From Wolbachia endosymbiont of Cimex lectularius (GTDB lineage: Bacteria > Pseudomonadota > Alphaproteobacteria > Rickettsiales > Anaplasmataceae): a stretch of DNA of 32,000 nt. Below the pieces are notes generated by a model. It had not been told where the DNA came from and did not search any database. It saw only the letters and a list, made by a program, of their open reading frames with translations. Every line of letters begins with the position of its first letter. Position 1 is the stretch's first letter. The DNA lies in NCBI RefSeq assembly GCF_000829315.1, contig NZ_AP013028.1:30001-62000 (forward strand), read 5' to 3'. Made by a program: the position numbers and the translations under genes. Below are positions 2,784-32,000 of the stretch, one piece after another.

Positions 2784-2807
2784 AACTTACGATAAACAAA
2801 CAGTTCA

Positions 2808-2892
2808 ATAGGTATGCAACCCAAAAAGATTCTGATATGGCTGCTTCATCTCTGACCTGACCAAGTGACAGAGTTTTTGCCTGCATACCTTG
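2808..2892 (-). ncRNA. ffs: signal recognition particle RNA (small bacterial 4.5S type)
   Basis: The minus strand reads ggtatgcaggcaaaaactctgtcacttGGTCAGGTCAGAGATGAAGCAGCCatatcagaatctttttgggttgcatacc, one long hairpin closed by ggtatgca/tgcatacc. The apex matches the conserved domain IV pattern GGUCAGG-UCN-GNRA-NGA-AGCAGCC, here UCA-GAGA-UGA versus E. coli UCC-GGAA-GGA, a compensated stem with a GNRA loop. It lies directly upstream of dnaX, a common synteny. The ends are approximate. Confidence 0.75.
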
Positions 2893-2986
2893 TAAAATAT
2901 TATACTTTTTTTTTTATTTAGCAAGGTATATCCTATGGTAGTTTACGATTAGTTGGGGTTGCACAAGTTATATATAGAAATTAATT

Positions 2987-6057: not shown

Positions 6058-6343
6058 AAATCTAAATCAACTGGAACAGGATCCGTATCTACCGTCAGTC
6101 TTAGTAGATTCCTGAGACCTAAAGTTAAAGTGGGCATCACGTATTAATTTCAACGAAATCAATAGAGACAATTCCCTTGACTAGAAATTATCGCTCGGGA
6201 AATTTAACTTAACTCATAACGTATAGAACAGACCCTTATAATTATAGCTAGTTTACACAAGTTGTGTCTATATGTATATTGCAGTCAACAATAAAACTAA
6301 CTATCTTTATTAAACTTTGCATTTTAAGTGTTACGGTCAATAA

Positions 6344-9307: not shown

Positions 9308-9330
9308 ATAGCCTTATGCCATACAACTTA

Positions 9331-9760
9331 GACCTCTCGCATATCAAACTAGTTTTGGCATATGCGAAAAAACTACTTGACAAGTTCCTCCAAACCCATT
9401 ATCATGTTATTGGAGCTATTCATTTAGCTTCAATCTGTGCACCTTATGTCTTTATTAATTTTACCTAGACTTCTAGGTTTTTCCCTATACAAGCTGAAAC
9501 GCGCTTATAAGTCGTTTAGGACAGTATAGTACGCCAATTTGCAGGATTAGAGAGTGAGCAACTTCTACCACGGGACTCTTTTGTCTTTTTTTCTGCTTAG
9601 TAAGTTTCTTAGCACTTAAGCTAAGGGTCTGTTGCAGTTTAAAAGTCGCTAAATTGCAGCGTTTAAGACTTAAAAAAACGCCAATACTAAAAATAAATAC
9701 CGACCAGGGTTTCTTTTGCTTTTTTCTCCGTTTAGTAAATTTCTTAAATATTTATTACTA
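9331..9760 (+). repeat. promoter-bearing intergenic element, copy A
   Basis: Aligns by eye with 15574-16010, 28300-28809 and 31711-32000. It has a leader, an A-tract, the promoter, a small inverted repeat and two tandem modules (9490-9612, 9631-9748). No ORF of 60 aa or more. Confidence 0.8.
9377..9405 (+). promoter_or_regulatory. sigma70-type promoter of element copy A
   Basis: TTGACA (9377-9382), 17 nt, TATCAT (9400-9405), with the A-tract aaaaaact directly upstream of the -35. Confidence 0.6.
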
Positions 9761-9774
9761 AAGTAGTATCCAGG

Positions 9775-9797
9775 ATCTCAGTGTCAGCTACTGGGAT
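9775..9797. repeat. short palindromic unit (atctcagt-gtcagct-actgggat)
   Basis: An 8-bp stem (one G-T pair) with a 7-nt loop, at the 3' flank of element copy A. A related unit sits at 28836-28860 after copy C. Confidence 0.5.
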
Positions 9798-9972
9798 GAC
9801 AAGCTACTTGGTGTATTTTTGTATCAGAAAACACTTGCTAAGGCTTTTTGGCCGCTTATAGATAGACTATAGCACTTCGTTTTTTGTAAACTTTCTCTGT
9901 CTTTGGTAATTTGTTTTAACATAGATAAAATAAACTGTGTATTTTTTTTAATAAATTGACTATGCTAAAAAC

Positions 9973-15573: not shown

Positions 15574-16010
15574 GAGACCTCTCACATAGTTTCTAGCAGC
15601 GCGCTAGGCGTATAACAACCGTCATTCAATAGAAACAAAAAACTACTTGACAACCTTCACCAACCCTGTTATTATGAGACTGAAGCTATTTGTTTAACTT
15701 CCCAATCTGTGCACTGCATGTCTTTTTAAAACTTCGGGGTTTTTACCCATACAAGCTGAAACGCGCTTATAAGTCGTTTAAGACATCACCCAACGCCGGA
15801 TTTTAAAATAGAGAGTGAAATAACTAGCTACCTCGGGGTTTTATTGTCTTTTTCTTCTGCCTGGTAAATTTCTTAAATATTATAGCTTAGACTAGTTGCG
15901 TTTAAAAGCAGCTAAATTGCAGCGTTTAAGGCATAAAAACGCCAATACTAAAAATAAATACCGACCGGGGCTTCTTTTGCTTTTTTTCTTCGCTTGGTAA
16001 ATTTCTTAAG
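15574..16010 (+). repeat. promoter-bearing intergenic element, copy B
   Basis: Same architecture as copy A, with modules at about 15752-15876 and 15895-16010. Module 2 is nearly identical to module 2 of copy A. Confidence 0.8.
15647..15675 (+). promoter_or_regulatory. sigma70-type promoter of element copy B
   Basis: TTGACA (15647-15652), 17 nt, TATTAT (15670-15675), with an upstream A-tract. Confidence 0.6.
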
Positions 16011-16222
16011 CATGAAGGTTATACCAATTTTCGTTATCAAACAAGATACATAATAAATTCGCTAAATCTCTCATCGTAGGGAAACTTTTTATTTACCATT
16101 GGGATTTGGTATAATGATGTACCAAGACATTACCTTTAACTGTTGCCTTATGTTTGATATACGGACCATTGATTAGCAGGGAAATTGTTTTACTTTTATG
16201 ATTTTCATGTTAAAGTATAACC

Positions 16223-16568
16223 CTAGGTGAAATAAGTAGCTGCTGTTGTGTGATAAGCACAGCAGAGGAAAGTCCGGGCTCCAAGGAAAAATAGTGACGG
16301 GTAACGCCCGCCGGGGGTAACTCCAGTTATAGGGCTACAGAAAATTACCGCCTAAAGTATTTTAGGTAAGGGTGAAAAGGTGTGGTAAGAGCACACCATA
16401 ACAATGGCAACATTGGTAGTCGAGTAACCAACACTAGGAGCAAGATTAAATAAGAGTAGACCTTATGTTTTTCTTCATATCTACTCGGGTAAATCGCAAG
16501 TAGTAAATGGTAACATTTACTCCAGATAAATAGCTACATAAACAGAACCCGGCTTATATTTCACCTAG
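16223..16568 (+). ncRNA. rnpB: RNase P RNA (bacterial type A)
   Basis: Contains GAGGAAAGTCCGGGCTCC and the 3' partner ACAGAACCCGGCTTA (the P4 strands). The terminal P1 helix pairs ctaggtgaaataag with cttatatttcacctag. About 346 nt. Confidence 0.92.
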
Positions 16569-16615
16569 ACACTCACATAAATATCAATTATGCCGTATTC
16601 AAATGTATAAGCACT

Positions 16616-19958: not shown

Positions 19959-20753
19959 CTTATACATACCCTTGTTGAGCGGTTATAAATTTTTACGTCT
20001 GTTTTAAAAGTACTATGTTTTTTTTGTATGAAGTAGTTTTATGATTAATTTTAATATTATTCTTTCTTTCTTATTCCAAATTGAAAGTGGATAATAAAAT
20101 TAAGGCCTACAACATCAAAATATTATAATAAGTAACTTAATTGATACTGTGGATGATGGGTTTTATATTTGGGATGCAAAAAAACGTATAGAAAAGTTTT
20201 CTCCTAACTTACTAGTTTTACTTAATACTGTTTTTTACTCATTTAATGAGTTTGTCAACTTTTTTGAGCAATCGGAAAGCTTAATTAAAAATTTTACTGA
20301 GGCAAAAAAAGTGAATAAATCTTTTACTCTGGACTTGAAGTCAAAAGACGGTGAAGTTTACTGTATATGTTATGGCAGAAGCATAATAGACAACTCTAAT
20401 AGCGTAATTGGTGTGCTGTTGTGGATAAGAAACGTCTCAGACTGCAAGATAAAAGCTAACGAATTGGAGTCAGAAAATAGTAAGCTTAAACAAAAAGTAG
20501 AGAACTACAGGAGCATTCTTAACTCTCTGCCGTTTCCAATACTAAAATATAATGAAAATAAAAAAGTAAAGTTTTGCAACCTATTTTATGATAAATATAT
20601 CAATAGCTCCCAGAGATTGGCTGTTACTGATAGTGCCCACAGCACCAAACCAGGAAAACATGTGATAACTTGCAAAAACGAACGCAAGGTTTTTGATTTT
20701 ATTAGAACCTGTTTAAAATCTTCGTAACAGGAGAGAAATGAAGGAGAGGACTA

Positions 20754-21176: not shown

Positions 21177-21300
21177 TTATACAAAAGCTAGTTTTCTCCT
21201 TCCGACCATTGCTGATACGGACCTCTCCAACTAATTTTTTTTAAGAACCTGTTTAAAATCTTGGAAATGTGAGGTAAAGTAAGCATAGATTAATAATGAG

Positions 21301-21632: not shown

Positions 21633-22097
21633 TTGATTCTCAAAGCGTTAAAAACGCAGATACTGCTGAAAAAAAAAGGCTATGATGCAGGTAAAAAGAT
21701 TTCAGGGATAAAGCGCCATATTGCAGTTGATACACAAGGTTTGCCACATGCAATTTATGTAACAACGGCAGAAGCAACTGACCGTAGCAGTGCTGTGAAA
21801 ATGGTCGAAAATGCTAAAGCAAACCTCTCTGAAGTTAAAAACATACTGGTTGATGCTGGCTACACAGGAGAAAATTTTGCAACACAAATAAAAGCTATCA
21901 TTGGTGCGACTGTTGAAGTAATAAAGCGAAGTGAGTTACACACTTTCGTCGTATTGCCAAAAAGATGGGTTGTTGAACGCTCTTTTGCCTGGTTAGAAAA
22001 GTGCAGGCGATTGTGGAAAAATTGCGAGCGGAAGCTCAACACTAGCTTACAGATGATAGTCCTCTCCTTCATTTCTCTCCTGTTACGAAGATTTTAA
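21633..22097 (+). CDS. IS5-family transposase, DDE C-terminal segment (inner copy)
   Basis: 154 aa containing GYDAGKKISGIKRHIAVDTQGLP, LVDAGYTG and RWVVERSFAWL. The first ~15 residues in the track are out-of-frame translation upstream of the A9 run. Confidence 0.8.
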   Translation: MILKALKTQILLKKKGYDAGKKISGIKRHIAVDTQGLPHAIYVTTAEATDRSSAVKMVENAKANLSEVKNILVDAGYTGENFATQIKAIIGATVEVIKRSELHTFVVLPKRWVVERSFAWLEKCRRLWKNCERKLNTSLQMIVLSFISLLLRRF

Positions 22098-22108
22098 ACA
22101 GGTTCTAA

Positions 22109-22372
22109 GACTAATTCCAACAAGCTTGGCTCTTCTCCATTCTTTTTACTCCACACTCGAAAATAGTAATATACGCTTTCCCATCTTGGAAAACCCTTTG
22201 GTAACATCCTCCACTGACAACCACTTTTTAAGACGTACAACACCCCACAAAATACGTCATACAAATCAAGTTTTCTTGGTTTTGTTTTCTGCTTGCTACT
22301 CTCCAAAATTGGCCTGATTTTTTCAAACTGCTCTTGACTTATATTACTTGGATAACTTTTCTGCATAGACAC
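22109..22372 (-). pseudogene. transposase N-terminal segment of the outer IS copy, cut by the inner insertion
   Basis: Same 5' sequence as 21301..21621 (one G/S difference). The track ORF 22094..22372 reads across the junction into the inner IS end. Confidence 0.8.
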
Positions 22373-22879
22373 CTCATTATTAATCTATGCTTACTTTACC
22401 TCACATTTCCAAGATTTTAAACAGGTTCTTAGAATTCCAATGCAAAATTTTGGTGGTGCGGTAATATATGGAAAAGATGTTAGCGATGCAGAGGAGTTAC
22501 GTGCTAGACTAGATAGTTATTTAGCTGCACAGAAAAGTTTACTTGAGGAGTTACCAATTGCTATTGCAATATACAGTAAGAATCAAAAACTGAAGTTTCA
22601 TAATAATGCTTTTGTAAAAACCTTTCAACTTGATACAAAGTTTTTGGCATCCCATCCAACTTATCATGAAGTCATGCTTTACCTATTCGAATCTCAGAAG
22701 CTTTTAGAACAAAAAGATTTTCAAACTATTAGCAACCAAAGGCATGAATTATTCAAAAGATTATTTGGACCGCATAATGATACAATCCATCTTACAAATG
22801 GAAAAATGTTCAGGATATTGATAATACCCTATGCTTCAGAAGGTTTACTCTTTTCCTATGAGGAATGCAAAAGGTAGCC

Positions 22880-26724: not shown

Positions 26725-28218
26725 TTAATACGCTCTTATTCTGTAATTTAGAGCTTCAGCAATGTGTGCTCTTTTTACCTCTTCACTTTTTGCAAGATCT
26801 GCAATGGTTCTTGCAACTTTTAATACGCGTGTGTAGCCTCGGTTGGAAATGTAGTTTTCTTTTAGTACGTGTTTTAATAGCTCTAACCCTGCTCGGTCTG
26901 GCTTAGTGAATTTATTCAAAGCTTCACCACTTACTTCTGAGTTGCAGCTAATACTTAATTTGCTGTAGCGCTCAGCCTGAATTCTCCTTGCTGCTATTAC
27001 TCTTTCTCTTATTCTGTCAGTACTCTCTCCCTCTGAATAAATTTCAGGAGAAAGTATGCTGACGTTTGGCATTTCGATGCATATATCTATTCTATCAAGC
27101 AATGGTCCTGATATTTTATTCCTATAATCTGTGCTACATCGTGGAGCTTTGTTGCATGACCTACTCGCATTTCCCAAGTAACCACACCTGCAGGGATTCA
27201 TCGCAGCAATTAGTTGAAAATGCGCTGGGTAAGTAATGTGAGCATTAACCCTTGCAATAGTAACTTTTCTATCTTCAAGTGGTTGGCGTAGGGAATCAAG
27301 CACGAGTCTTGGAAACTCTGGCAATTCGTCAAGGAACAATACTCCATTATGAGCCATAGTGATTTCCCCAGGTTTTGCATTTTTTCCTCCTCCTATCATC
27401 GCTGGCATGGAGCATGAATGATGAGGTTCGCGAAAGGGACGAGTTACTTTGAATATCTCATTGTCAGCCTGTGTTATACTGGAAATGATATTCACATCAA
27501 TCATTTCACGCTCAGTTAAATCAGGCAGCAGCCCTATAAATCGTTTGGCAAGCATCGACTTTCCAGTACCGGGAAGTCCAACAAGAAGCATGTTGTGTCC
27601 GCCTGCCGCCGCAATTTCAGCCGCTCTTTTTGCTACAACTTGACCTTTGATATCCTTCATATTTGGTACTGATCTTTTTTCTTTCGGTTTATTAAAAATT
27701 ACCGACTCAATCGACTTCTCACCTTTGAAATATCTAATAATATCGGTCAATTTCTCTATAGCCAAAACTGAGACATTCTTTACCCATGAAGCCTCTACTC
27801 CATTTCCCCTTGGACAAATTATTCCTTTGTTTTTCTGTTTTGCATTGATTACCGCTGGCAAAACCCCTGAAACTGAAATAACCCTGCTGTCAAGGGCAAG
27901 TTCACCCATAATGATGTAAAACTGAACTTTTTCGACTGGTATAACGTTCATCACAACAAGCAGTCCAATAGCCAAATCATAGTGGCTGCCTTCTTTCAGC
28001 AAATCTGCAGGGGAAAGATTAATTGTGATTCTTTTAGGAGGGAGCAGTAGATTAGTTGAATTTAGTGCTGCTCTAATACGTTCTCTGGATTCTGCAACAG
28101 TTTTATCCGGCAATCCAACGATATTAAAGGCAGGAACACCATTTGCCATGTGAATTTGGACATTAACATTTACTATATTAATTCCCTGAAGCACAACGGT
28201 ATTTATATTTGCAATCAT
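26725..28218 (-). CDS. comM: YifB/ComM family ATPase (Mg-chelatase ChlI-like)
   Basis: 497 aa. Lon-like N-domain, Walker A GLPGTGKSMLA and Walker B VLFLDELPEF. Confidence 0.88.
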   Translation of the reverse strand: MIANINTVVLQGINIVNVNVQIHMANGVPAFNIVGLPDKTVAESRERIRAALNSTNLLLPPKRITINLSPADLLKEGSHYDLAIGLLVVMNVIPVEKVQFYIIMGELALDSRVISVSGVLPAVINAKQKNKGIICPRGNGVEASWVKNVSVLAIEKLTDIIRYFKGEKSIESVIFNKPKEKRSVPNMKDIKGQVVAKRAAEIAAAGGHNMLLVGLPGTGKSMLAKRFIGLLPDLTEREMIDVNIISSITQADNEIFKVTRPFREPHHSCSMPAMIGGGKNAKPGEITMAHNGVLFLDELPEFPRLVLDSLRQPLEDRKVTIARVNAHITYPAHFQLIAAMNPCRCGYLGNASRSCNKAPRCSTDYRNKISGPLLDRIDICIEMPNVSILSPEIYSEGESTDRIRERVIAARRIQAERYSKLSISCNSEVSGEALNKFTKPDRAGLELLKHVLKENYISNRGYTRVLKVARTIADLAKSEEVKRAHIAEALNYRIRAY

Positions 28219-28299
28219 AATATACTTTCTAAAATTATTAATAGAATGTATTAAAGAGATTATGAAGTAAAGGCTTTGAACTCCTTGATTTAAGCTGTC

Positions 28300-28809
28300 A
28301 CTAGACTTTTTGCATAGTTTTTAGCAGCGTATGTCACCCAATAGAAACGAAAAAAACTACTTGACAAATTCCTTCAACCCCCTTATAATGAGACTGAAGC
28401 TATTATTTATCTTCAGTCTGTACAGATAAAACGACAAAAAACTCAATGTACTTGGCGTCTCATGTTTAATTTTTTGCACTATGTGCACCTCATGTCTTTA
28501 TAAACTTTCAAGGGTTTTACCTAATATAAGCTAAAATGCGCTTGTTAAAGCATTTAAGACAATAAAAAACGCCAATTTAAAAGATAGATAGTGAATAACT
28601 AGCTAACGGGGTTTCTTTTGCCTTTTGTCTGTTTAGTAAATTTCTTAACGTTTAAAATTAGGTCAATTGCGGTTTAAAAGCAGCCAGATTAGACGTTTAG
28701 AATAAAAAAACGCCAATTTATAAAGTTAACATAAATAATTAGCTACTAACGGGGCTTCTTTTGCTTTTTTTCTTTACTCGGTAAATTTCTTAAATATTAT
28801 GGCTAAAGC
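28300..28809 (+). repeat. promoter-bearing intergenic element, copy C
   Basis: Same architecture as the other copies. The 9-bp inverted repeat AGACTGAAG-N11-CTTCAGTCT is at 28391-28419, and the modules are at about 28527-28648 and 28665-28793. It has about 55 extra bp relative to A and B after the inverted repeat. Confidence 0.8.
28361..28389 (+). promoter_or_regulatory. sigma70-type promoter of element copy C (perfect consensus)
   Basis: TTGACA (28361-28366), 17 nt, TATAAT (28384-28389), with the A-tract gaaaaaaact upstream. Confidence 0.65.
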
Positions 28810-28835
28810 AATTCATGAACCAGGCAGAAAGGTGT

Positions 28836-28860
28836 CATTCCAGCGCATGACGCTGGATGG
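28836..28860. repeat. short palindromic unit (tccagcg-catga-cgctgga)
   Basis: A 7-bp perfect stem at 28839-28857 at the 3' flank of element copy C. It occupies the same relative position as the unit after copy A. Confidence 0.5.
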
Positions 28861-28992
28861 CTTTGTTGTAAACTGACTTTTACTATATGATTACCTTTTT
28901 ATGGCATCTTGTCTATCTCATTTTACCATTCCGCTGAACAGATATAAAATATTTAATAAACTCTTTTTTTTCAACAAAAACACATAATGGAC

Positions 28993-31554
28993 TTAAACCT
29001 TTTTAACTAAGATTTTGTTACCAGAAGCGTACACTATTAGCTCATCACCTTCTGTTACTTCCCCCGATAAAACTAACTTAGCTAGATTATTTTGAATACA
29101 CTCCTGTATTACTCTTTTTAGCGGTCTTGCTCCATACTCAGGATCATAGCCAGCTTGCGCTATTAGTTTCTTAGCTTCCTCTGACAGATTTATACTTAGT
29201 TTGCGCTTAGCAAGTGTTTTTTGTAAATAAGAAAACTGGACATCTATAATTTTATAAATGTCGTCCTTGGTTAAACTGTGGAATATAATAATCTCATCTA
29301 GTCTGTTTAGAAATTCCGGACGAAATGCAGATTTAACTATTTGCATCACTTCGCTTTTTACAGAGTCAGTAGCTCCCTTTAGCATTATCTCAGCACCAAG
29401 ATTAGAAGTTAAAATTAATATGGTATTGCGGAAATCAATTAATTTGCCGTAGCTATCGGTAAGTCTGCCTTCATCCAAAATCTGCAGTAATAGATTGAAT
29501 ATATCTGGATTTGCTTTTTCTATCTCATCAAACAAAATTACCTGATATGGTCTCCTTCTTACTGCCTCAGTCAACCTGCCGCCTTGTTCATAGCCAACAT
29601 ATCCAGGAGGTGCGCCAATTAGCTTTGAAACGGAGTGTTTTTCCATATACTCTGACATGTCAAAACGCAAAAGTGCTGATTGGTCATCAAACAAAAATTC
29701 GGCAAGGGCTTTCGCAAGTTCCGTTTTTCCAACTCCGGTTGGGCCCAAGAATAAAAATGAACCAAAAGGCCGATTAGTGTCTTGCACACCAGAACGAGAG
29801 CGCCTAACTGCATTACTTATTGCTTCTATTGCATCCTTTTGTCCTATCACTCTTTTTCCTATTTCATTCTCCATGTTAAGGAGCTTTTCTTTTTCACTGT
29901 GCATCATGTTATCAACTGGAATTCCTGTCCACTTTGAAACAATATTTGCAATGTCATTCTCAGTAACTTCTTTCTTTAGGAAGCTATCAGTGACTTTCTC
30001 CTGATTTTTTAATTCATTTTCAAGCTGAGGAATTACACCATACATTAGCTCTCCTGCCTTTTCTAAATTTCCACTGCGCTGAGCTAATTCTAGTTCTTTT
30101 CTAGCGTTATCTAATTTTTCTGCTGTTTCTTGAATTCTAGCTATTTTATTCTTTTCCATCTGCCATTTACTATTTAAGTCAGCAAACTTACTATTTAGGT
30201 TTTCGATTTCTTCGTTTATCCTCTTTAAACGCTGCTTGGAGTTTTCATCATGTTCTTTTTTTAGAGCCTCTGACTCAATTTTTAGCTGTACGATCTTCCT
30301 CTCAAGTTCATCAATAACCTCAGGTTTACTATCCATTTCAATTCTCACCCTACTTGCCGCTTCATCAATTAAATCAATCGCTTTATCAGGTAAAAACCTG
30401 TCTGTTATGTATCTATTGGATAATGTTGCAGCAGCAATTATTGTACCATCTGTAATCCTAATACCGTGGTGCACTTCGTACCTCTCCTTTAGACCCCTCA
30501 GTATTGAAATAGTATCAGTTTCAGTTGGTTGAGAAATAAACACAGGCTGGAAACGCCTTGCAAGTGCAGGATCTTTTTCTATATGTTCGCGATATTCATC
30601 CAAAGTTGTGGCTCCTATACAGCGAATTTCTCCACGTGCAAGAGCAGGCTTTAGCAAATTTGAAGCATCCATTGCACCACTTGTTGCTCCTGCTCCAACT
30701 AAAGTGTGTAATTCATCGATGAATAATATAATTTTTCCCTCTGCTTTTGAAATCTCATTAATAACCGCCTTTAGCCTTTCTTCAAACTCCCCCCTGAATT
30801 TTGTTCCGGCAATCAACGCACCAAGATCTAGGGCTAAAACTTTTGCATCACGCAAACCAAGCGGCACATCGTTTGCAACAATTCTATTTGCAAGCCCCTC
30901 AACTATCGCAGTCTTTCCAACACCCGGTTCACCTATCAGCACGGGATTATTCTTTGTTCGCCTTAGTGACACCTGCATAGTTCTTCTTATCTCCTCATCA
31001 CGACCAATTACAGGATCAAGCTTTCCTTGCATAGCAAGCTCTGTAATATCTTTTGTATATTTCTTTGCTGCATTTAGTTTTTCCTCGCTATTTGGCGAGT
31101 CTGCATTGTTGCCCTTTCTCATTTCTGCAATGACTGAGTTCAACTTTTGTGGAGTTACACCATTTTCCATTAAAATTCTACCCACAGTATCATCTTTTTG
31201 TGCAGCAAAACCCTGTAGTAAACGCTCAACGGTAACAAATGAATCTTTATTTCTCCTTGCAATACCAATTGAATCTTCAAAAACTTTTGCCACTTCTCTT
31301 GAAAGTTGGAGGCTACTACTTCCCGGACCTTCAACTACTGGAAACTTTCTAATTGCGCTATCCACAGCATCGGAAATATTTTGCACATTTCCACCACAAG
31401 CGCCTATTAAATCCTGGACTAAACCCGATTCATCTTCGAGCATCACCTTTAGTAAATGCTCAGGCATAAAAACCTGATGCCCAGCTCCCAATGCTTTCAT
31501 TTGGGCACTTTGAATTAGGCTTTTTGCTTTTTCGGTAAATTTATTTAAGTCCAT
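28993..31554 (-). CDS. clpB: ATP-dependent chaperone/disaggregase ClpB
   Basis: 853 aa. Two AAA+ modules ([18 protein letters not shown]) separated by a long coiled-coil middle domain, with a Clp N-domain. Confidence 0.97.
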
Positions 31555-31611: not shown

Positions 31612-31710
31612 GCTAGGAGCTGTTCATTGCCAGGCAAAAATTCATGTTGCAGAGGTGGTGGTATAAATAATTCTGGAGGTTATGCCCATTAATCGCTAAT
31701 TTCGCTATTG

Positions 31711-32000
31711 GACTTCTCACATAGTTTTTGGCAGCATGCTAGGTGTATAGAAACAAAAAAAACTGCTTGACAACCTTCACCGACTTCATTATCATAGTAG
31801 TAAGGGTATTTCTGACTCAAAACTTGTTTTTGATCTGTAGGCTCAATGACAAAATTCAGTAAAAAACTCAGGGTATTTTTTGGCGGATTGTATCAAATTA
31901 TAGCGGCTGCATGTCTTTTTCATTTTTTCTACATTCAGCCAAATCGCGCTTGAACTAAGCGTCAGTAAATTATTATAGCGCCAATTTAAAGTATTATAGA
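31711..32000 (+). repeat. promoter-bearing intergenic element, copy D (runs off the window)
   Basis: The leader gacttctcacatagttttt, the A-tract and the promoter are conserved. The transcribed 5' part has diverged. It rejoins the family at gcatgtcttttt and gcgccaatttaaa, the start of module 1, at the window edge. Confidence 0.7.
31767..31795 (+). promoter_or_regulatory. sigma70-type promoter of element copy D
   Basis: TTGACA (31767-31772), 17 nt, TATCAT (31790-31795), with the A-tract caaaaaaaact upstream. Confidence 0.55.

Follow-up and report, generated by a model that had tools for sequence, protein, structure and literature searches.

Copy C, a repeat lying in the spacer between comM and clpB in the Wolbachia endosymbiont of Cimex lectularius, is best read as an ordinary member of a dispersed family, specific to Wolbachia, of non-coding and self-contained transcription units whose genomic context is set by recombination and not by control of clpB; we give this reading a probability of roughly 0.65. 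It is one of four copies, A to D, in the window analysed here, a 32,000-nucleotide (nt) stretch of contig NZ_AP013028.1 (positions 30,001 to 62,000, forward strand), and all coordinates below count from the first base of that window. Within the family the promoter is conserved, the palindrome over the start site is conserved only to a limited extent, and the copies are associated with breaks in synteny. As far as could be found, the family has not yet been described as such, and a full-text literature search for four element motifs found no paper containing any of them.

The spacer that holds copy C is AT-rich and 774 bp long (28219–28992), and both of its neighbours, comM (26725–28218) and clpB (28993–31554), are on the minus strand; the exact ComM protein is present in an NCBI assembly. 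An initial annotation of this DNA had reported a TTGACA-17-TATAAT promoter, a 9-bp inverted repeat and minus-strand neighbouring genes, all of which were found where it had placed them. The parts of copy C are as follows.

28301–28338, plus strand: upstream module TAGACTTTTTGCATAGTTTTTAGCAGC..., a variant of the box TAGACTTCTCACAT
28339–28360, plus strand: CAATAGAAAC and an A-tract, then CTAC; UP-element-like and abutting the −35 hexamer, which is preceded by 12 nt that are 87% conserved in 28 copies
28361–28389, plus strand: sigma-70-type promoter TTGACA-17-TATAAT (−35 at 28361–28366, −10 at 28384–28389), matching the consensus at 12/12 positions
28391–28419, plus strand: inverted repeat AGACTGAAG-N11-CTTCAGTCT, beginning two bases past the −10
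28396, plus strand: predicted transcription start, the G of GAAGCUAUU, from alignment with the ends mapped by rapid amplification of cDNA 5′ ends (5′RACE) for IGR-1021 and IGR-1047 of wMel
28396–28414, plus strand: predicted 5′ stem-loop GAAG...CUUC, the transcribed part of the inverted repeat (helix 1, 100% of cells paired)
28396–28646, plus strand: predicted transcribed core of about 250 nt (nhmmer model positions 2–258, E = 3e-63)
28419–28481, plus strand: segment of about 62 nt without a counterpart in copies A and B, with the direct repeats TGTACA (28419–28424) and TGTGCA (28482–28487) at its edges
28692–28791, plus strand: second 3′ module in tandem (model positions 158–258), with 141–145 nt from the start of one module to the start of the next
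28839–28857, plus strand: short G+C-rich palindrome TCCAGCG-CATGA-CGCTGGA, weak, and the sole terminator-like site flagged on this strand between the start and clpB

The copy C region had no match in Rfam 15 at gathering scores, and the best matches of an E-value search of Rfam had E = 1.6 or more, far under threshold; a scan of the window for tRNA and tmRNA genes found none. The longest open reading frame (ORF) has 43 amino acids (aa), and many indels that separate the copies have lengths not divisible by three. Neither the ORF MFNFLHYVH... nor a 43-aa minus-strand ORF was accepted as a small gene, as both are unconserved and lack ribosome-binding sites. Identity with ncrwmel01 or ncrwmel02 was likewise ruled out, as the sequences differ.

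A dispersed family and its promoter

We scanned the promoter-proximal pattern AAAAAACTRCTTGACAANYTYCWYC against one genome per species, which yielded 65 matching DNA stretches. Three were chance matches in clostridia (Ruminiclostridium and Oscillospiraceae metagenome-assembled genomes, MAGs), and the non-clostridial matches came from wMoz, wPaur, wTis, two Wolbachia MAGs (one labelled Paracimex) and three MAGs labelled 'Rickettsiales', in which the genes and proteins flanking the copies are Wolbachia-like. Contig ends hold many of the matches, which would be expected for repeated DNA. We also built a 258-position profile from the transcribed part only; searched against the window and 67 loci, it gave 115 matches, about 15 of them copies that the promoter pattern had not picked, and TTGACA stood upstream in 80 of the 82 matches that include the 5′ head. 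The plasmid collection contained no family match. The sole match in the phage collection was a truncated copy in a wRi 'phage WO' record, where it lies in the ruvA–rnhB spacer and overlaps the 5′ end of rnhB; a relaxed promoter pattern run on viral contigs returned 20 chance matches and no family members.

The units share a modular order: variable upstream modules (including, in about ten copies, the box TAGACTTCTCACAT 78–109 nt 5′ of the start); CAATAGAAAC, an A-tract and CTAC; TTGACA-17-TAT(C/T/A)AT; a core of about 255 nt; and none to two extra 3′ modules. Read from the table of profile matches, about half of the full-length copies carry one or two of these extra tandem modules, which have a period of about 133–145 nt. 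In the family alignments, the conserved blocks of the core are GCACTATGTGCAC, CATGTCTTT, AAGCT.AAA.GCGCTT..AAG..TTTAAGACA, ACGCCAAT, GGGGTTTCTTTTGCC and GTAAATTTCTTAA. The 5′ heads fall into at least three types, which begin GAAGCTATT..CTTC (type 1; copies A, B and C), AAGGGTATTTCTGACTCAAAACTTG (type 2; copy D) and ATGGGTGTTTTAGGCC (type 3). Subfamilies had been proposed on the basis of a segment shared by copies C and D; they do exist, but they are set by the three or more head types, and copy D is a diverged type and not a sharer of an insertion. The three other copies that had been listed for the window are present on the plus strand, the hairpins of A and B being weaker than that of C:

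9329–9745 (approximate), plus strand: copy A, deletion variant with two 3′ modules
15574–16007 (approximate), plus strand: copy B, likewise a deletion variant carrying two 3′ modules; the RNase P RNA gene lies 216 nt downstream
31709–32000, plus strand: copy D, with a type-2 head; the window ends within it, and it is divergent from clpB

A shorter form of the unit was also seen at two loci (L014, 2560–2740, and L041), where a second promoter, AAAAAATTGCTTGACAAG-TATCAT, directly follows the U-rich end of a type-3 copy; its body is only about 110 nt long and ends in the usual GGGCTTCTTTTGCC..TAAATTTCTTAA module.

The promoter is the part of the element that stands out. With at most one mismatch allowed, the window has five TTGACA-N17-TATAAT sites where chance would give 0.66, and element copies A–D account for four of them. 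For a non-circular test we drew copies from metagenomes by a 30-nt motif in the RNA body and not by the promoter. Among the 29 distinct copies with enough upstream DNA, 23 had an intact TTGACA-17-TAnnnT and five more differed from it by single changes, so that a recognisable promoter was present in 28/29, always with a spacing of 17. Column identity across 28 metagenome copies was 0.98 in the −35 hexamer, 0.92 in the −10 hexamer (with variation at position 4 alone), 0.94 from +1 to +9 and 0.87 in the 12 nt before the −35 (A-tract and CTAC), compared with 0.74 in the spacer, 0.71 in the discriminator and 0.46 in the DNA further upstream, a pattern that would be expected of a selected promoter. 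TATCAT is the usual −10 of the family, and only a minority of copies have the textbook TATAAT seen in copy C. The promoter first noticed in copy C is thus real in the family sense, as the most conserved part of the element in a promoter-blind set of copies, and at the family level it appears to be the part held by selection.

Relatives of copy C have been analysed experimentally in wMel, where Woolfit et al. (2015) chose highly transcribed intergenic regions and performed 5′RACE on RNA treated with tobacco acid pyrophosphatase before adaptor ligation (PMC4349823). Two of the five RACE products, IGR-1021 (WD1243/WD1244) and IGR-1047 (ispH/WD1275), align with copy C over their full length, and both start at the equivalent of 28396 (PMC4349823 S1 File Table C), 7 nt past the −10. 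Homology with these mapped ends places the start of copy C at G28396, the very base near which it had been predicted from the promoter, and suggests that the copy C promoter is active in its own strain. Primers for wMel IGR-392, -446, -1035 and -1049 also match the element. RACE worked with element-antisense primers and failed with sense primers (IGR-446, IGR-1049), which fits transcription in one direction from the element promoter; the authors noted that repetitive sequence hampered primer design (PMC4349823). Intergenic regions of wMel that contain family or flanking-repeat sequence have 10–100 times the read level of the adjacent genes. In the wMel RNA-seq data (PMC4349823), IG-446, tied to the family by one weak primer match, stands at 392 against 15–34 in adjacent genes, and IG-921 (tRNA-Arg-4/WD1131), whose primers match just the palindromic repeats that flank copies, stands at 1037 against 9–22.

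The clone of IGR-1047 runs past the homologous U-rich stretch and IGR-1021 is co-transcribed with its downstream gene (PMC4349823), so the U-rich end of the core is not an efficient terminator. An intrinsic terminator scan of copy C found none at its own U-rich stretches (28608–28648 and 28751–28793), and read-through towards clpB is probable there.

The palindrome over the start and the fold of the transcript

The initial annotation had proposed that the inverted repeat over the start is either a repressor operator or a 5′ stem-loop. A repeat-finding tool extends it to 12-nt arms (28391–28402 and 28408–28419, 92%). Perfect 9-bp repeats are expected by chance 0.13 times in a 774-bp spacer and were seen in 9% of mononucleotide shuffles; the repeat is unremarkable by itself, and it is its position over the start site that is notable. 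Comparison across copies separates its two halves. The GRRG at +1 to +4 can pair with CUUC 11–12 nt downstream in all 52 distinct type-1 heads, with stems that are Watson–Crick in 35/52 and include G·U in 17/52, and one head has a compensatory AAAG/CUUU. This conserved 4–6-bp stem within the transcript fits a 5′ RNA stem-loop, the second of the two options.

An operator gating copy C as a regulated promoter would draw on the perfect dyad, which lies exactly between the −10 and +24, and on its identical recurrence at four other loci (L006, L029, L048 and L059). Against it, the five extra base pairs upstream of +1 are found in only 4 of the 52 type-1 heads, 36 of which have none or one; copy B has the left arm GAGACT without the right arm; and the sequence at the dyad position is unrelated in type-2 and type-3 heads. 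The dyad over the start is not kept among homologous promoters, and the 9-bp repeat that had been singled out lacks a counterpart in most copies, an outcome that tells against the original proposal. In the stem, changes from A to G turn pairs into G·U, which are G·T mismatches in the DNA. Because such variants keep the RNA helix and break the DNA dyad, the conserved feature would be a 5′ RNA stem-loop and not an operator, and we consider an operator very improbable. The stem-loop, which is short at 4–6 bp, may stabilise the RNA.

The segment at 28419–28481 had been taken as about 55 extra bp in copy C. Some 60 nt are indeed present in C and missing from A and B, but they are a deletion from the latter and not an insertion into the former. 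Most full-length copies in other genomes carry CTGTGCAGATTAAAyGAC...TTGGCGTCTyATGTTTAATTTTTTGCACTA; in copies A and B and a few others (for example L020) about 62 nt between two TGTGCA repeats are gone, and the junction in A and B reads CTGTGCAC. Because it is present in most full-length copies elsewhere, the segment is ancestral, and A and B lost it through a slippage- or recombination-type deletion.

In the minimum-energy fold of copy C (z = −1.5), the A-rich 5′ part pairs with the U-rich 3′ part, UUGGCGU with ACGCCAA and UGUCUU with AAGACA. RNAalifold applied to 25 type-1 copies gave 51 pairs in 10 helices, with 94.7% of cells paired. Of these pairs, 11/51 were changed on both sides, compared with 4.5 ± 1.6 in shuffles (0/500 reached this number) and 2–7 in slid controls. 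A conserved RNA structure is plausible from these models, if unproven.

Gene order around the copies

The comM side of copy C illustrates how the copies relate to gene order. From comM to the −35, the sequence is near-identical in the window, in a termite-associated MAG (L051) and in wTis (L060), including the module at 28301–28338. Past the −35, the head and the genes that follow differ at each of the three loci, clpB being found downstream in the window alone. The wPaur contig ends inside the head at this locus. In genomes where comM has other neighbours, the spacers are short and contain no copy, and upstream of comM the gene order was different in all the other lineages examined. The convergence of copy C and clpB looks like a by-product of recombination, since the comM side is shared just to the −35 and then leads into different genes. 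The same picture emerges from the family as a whole: gene pairs split by a copy were adjacent in another genome in 0/13 testable comparisons, and gene pairs without a copy between them were adjacent elsewhere in 88/115 (Fisher p = 6e-8). This is most simply explained if copies recombined with one another by homology, crossing over in the invariant promoter stretch, and thereby reshuffled gene order.

Downstream of the copies, the next gene is convergent in 23/37 and co-oriented in 14/37, and on these counts the family is not a promoter cassette for downstream genes, an idea that we rejected. A related proposal is that the element is a mobile promoter, a MITE (miniature inverted-repeat transposable element) or other non-autonomous transposable element that supplies a promoter to the gene behind it. 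It is a short, non-coding, many-copy repeat that breaks assemblies; as read from the flanking sequence, some copies stand 5′ of a co-oriented rpsP, ahpC, nuoE-like gene or rnpB; IGR-1021 is co-transcribed with the gene downstream; and at one locus TAGACTTCTCACAT, at −85, is matched by its inverse at +518. That inverse, however, was found downstream at one orthologous locus only (L004, L014), and neither general terminal inverted repeats nor target-site duplications were seen. The minority of co-oriented copies, the lack of any filled site whose flanking genes are adjacent elsewhere (0/13), and the absence of copies from viral contigs and of matches among plasmids likewise speak against transposition of a promoter, and we judge it improbable.

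Convergence with clpB had also been proposed to reflect an antisense arrangement. The layout is real and is the commonest in the family (23/37), but an antisense role is not specifically supported. In such a scheme, transcripts from copy C would extend into the clpB 3′ end, where collision or duplex formation would modulate the clpB mRNA. From the predicted start at 28396 it is 597 nt to the stop of clpB, which is encoded on the other strand, and the interval contains a single weak terminator-like hairpin; the wMel relatives show both read-through (IGR-1047) and co-transcription with a downstream gene (IGR-1021). Yet the partner gene is different at every locus, no clpB lies downstream at the orthologous comM site elsewhere, no part of the element is complementary to clpB, and the 23/37 preference is not significant, the copies not being independent. 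Antisense control of clpB is possible, and orientation argues neither for it nor against it; on the whole of the evidence we think it distinctly unlikely.

Several further features of these loci were recorded. Between copy C and clpB lies a weaker promoter-like box, TTTACC-17-TAAAAT (28922–28950). Directly 3′ of the palindrome at 28839–28857 is GGCTTTGTTG (28858–28868), which resembles TGGCTTTGTTGCATCGCTCAAGTG, the reverse complement of the wMel IGR-760 primer, and may be a remnant of an insertion-sequence end. Short G+C-rich palindromes of the form (T)CCAGCG..CGCTGG(A) or ATCCCAGT..ACTGGGAT occur at 28839–28857 and, after copy A, at 9770–9812; arrays of them lie 3′ of many copies in other genomes, and they match both the 23-bp hairpins of wMel VNTR-105 and VNTR-141 (VNTR, variable number tandem repeat) and a hairpin in the ncrwmel01 RACE clone. 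In wTis, comM (L060, 2728–4228) matches as two pieces, residues 1–401 and 418–498, and may be interrupted.

The copies at L006, L020 and L027, which come from three other genomes, are followed by sequence like the copy B–rnpB interval, with different genes upstream. Within that interval in the window, between copy B and the RNase P RNA gene (approximately 16098–16125), TTACCATTGGGATTTGGTATAAT with an extended −10 forms a second repeated promoter-like box, and related boxes follow element copies at other loci (for example L009). Three structural RNA genes fall within the 32-kb window: signal recognition particle RNA (2799–2896, minus strand), 6S RNA (6076–6237, minus strand) and RNase P RNA (16223–16572, plus strand). 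Cumulative GC skew peaks near 22 kb, where the main gene orientation flips from plus to minus, and the four element copies keep to the plus strand on either side of the peak. Near it, a box of about 50 nt, TTAGAACCTGTTTAAAATCTT...GGAGAG, is present in four copies (20697–20748 and 21237–21288, plus strand; 22062–22110 and 22385–22433, reverse complement). At least two of these (21237–21288 and 22385–22433) lie just 5′ of small ORFs in a two-strand cluster of small ORFs, and the boxes look like shared 5′ regions of paralogous small genes.

Weighing the readings and relation to known systems

Taken as a self-contained transcription unit, copy C would work as follows. RNA polymerase would start at G28396, and the first 19 nt of the transcript would fold into a small 5′ stem-loop of a kind that can protect a 5′ end against nucleases. 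Upstream of +1, the five bases that extend the complementarity would be a minority variant of the discriminator and not a binding site. Lacking a good intrinsic terminator, the unit would be transcribed through the core and probably on through the duplicated 3′ module. The orientation to clpB would reflect recombination that joined two half-elements and not regulation of clpB, and copies in general would act as recombination substrates, marking gene-order breaks between strains. We think it more likely that the transcript has a function of its own, or that the element persists selfishly in a way linked to its transcription, than that it controls the genes beside it.

A number of observations weigh against this reading. 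No copy was found in about 52 kb from five Wolbachia contigs of other lineages, so that wMel and one wRi fragment are the basis for extending the family across the genus. The synteny comparisons are small in number, are not independent and cover ORFs only, and one locus looks kept: L020 and L027 have an orthologous ORF of 193–194 aa, the element and an rnpB-type flank, this last judged by eye. As to the RNA fold, each double change occurs in just one or two sequences, RNAalifold on mixed subtypes keeps 3 pairs only, and per column G·U variants are no commoner than A·C (25 vs 23). The deletion in copies A and B removes the 5′ strands of two predicted helices; since these copies lose helix strands and keep their promoters, the fold is possibly not the selected trait. 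Finally, the palindrome is perfect in copy C, which may leave room for a strain-specific operator.

Some of these observations would equally suit a decaying, functionless repeat, in which the copies are left over from an old expansion, and gene conversion both homogenises them and restores the promoter. The weakness of the structural evidence, the persistence of deletion variants, the swapping of heads at orthologous sites, the truncated copies such as that in wRi and the strongly differing density between lineages speak for it. Two results are harder to accommodate: the hexamers and their 17-nt spacing are kept while the spacer and far-upstream DNA drift, as in a working promoter, and relatives are among the most transcribed intergenic regions of wMel, which belongs to a different supergroup. 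We regard decay as unlikely, though it deserves to be kept in mind. A more ambitious version of the transcription-unit reading would make the family a functional multi-copy RNA gene system, with a trans-acting RNA that serves as a sponge or ligand of an RNA-binding protein or of RNA polymerase, with dozens of near-consensus promoters producing a large share of non-ribosomal transcription, and with recombination between copies as a main driver of scrambled gene order; we offer it as a speculative extension that is probably not correct in full.

To our knowledge, Wolbachia cannot yet be engineered, and its control of transcription is little understood. Near-consensus promoters with starts mapped in wMel would account for a good part of the strong orphan intergenic transcription in Wolbachia RNA-seq, a signal usually discarded because the reads map to multiple sites. 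The family is a candidate source of a compact native promoter and 5′ leader for expression constructs. Since copies mark gene-order breaks between strains, and contigs end in them, they should be useful in assembly and in the reconstruction of rearrangements. For clpB itself, the expectation of a dedicated antisense regulator is lowered.

Short, dispersed, modular non-coding repeats have precedents. The pneumococcal BOX and Neisseria Correia elements have variable numbers of internal modules, are transcribed and can alter the expression of neighbouring genes; they have terminal inverted repeats or defined end boxes, and their promoters are at most fortuitous. In the Wolbachia family, in contrast, inverted ends are not a general feature, and conservation is highest in a consensus promoter. 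In reduced intracellular genomes, the Rickettsia and Wolbachia palindromic elements (RPE and WPE) and the MITE-derived small RNAs of Coxiella show that repeats can spread and that some are transcribed. Repeats of the RPE/WPE type are palindromic and often inserted in frame in genes, whereas the family described here lies between genes, lacks overall palindromic symmetry and has the promoter as its defining feature.

Within Wolbachia, the wMel regions IGR-1021 and IGR-1047 belong to the same family as copy C and have the equivalent start base (PMC4349823). Woolfit et al. (2015) took these regions as separate small RNA candidates and dropped them as repetitive or co-transcribed with genes, and described neither the repeat family nor its promoter (PMC4349823). 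The wMel repeats VNTR-105 and VNTR-141 consist of intergenic tandem units of 105–141 bp with 23-bp hairpins that have 9-bp stems, and VNTR-105 is placed between WD1129 and WD1131 (Riegler et al. 2012, PMC3287509). Hairpins of this type are found 3′ of many copies, with a shorter 7-bp version at 28839–28857. The VNTR papers describe neither a promoter nor a dispersed family, and we ruled out that the tandem 3′ modules of the element are VNTR-105 or VNTR-141, because their sequence is different and lacks the 23-bp hairpin.

A parallel also exists with the putative mobile promoters and promoter reuse reported by Nijveen, Matus-Garcia and van Passel (2012, PMC3575422). Both cases involve highly similar promoter DNA at many unrelated loci, within a genome and between related genomes. 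The Wolbachia family differs in that each promoter belongs with a non-coding transcript of its own, about 250 nt long, and in that the element faces the 3′ end of the next gene more often than the 5′ end.

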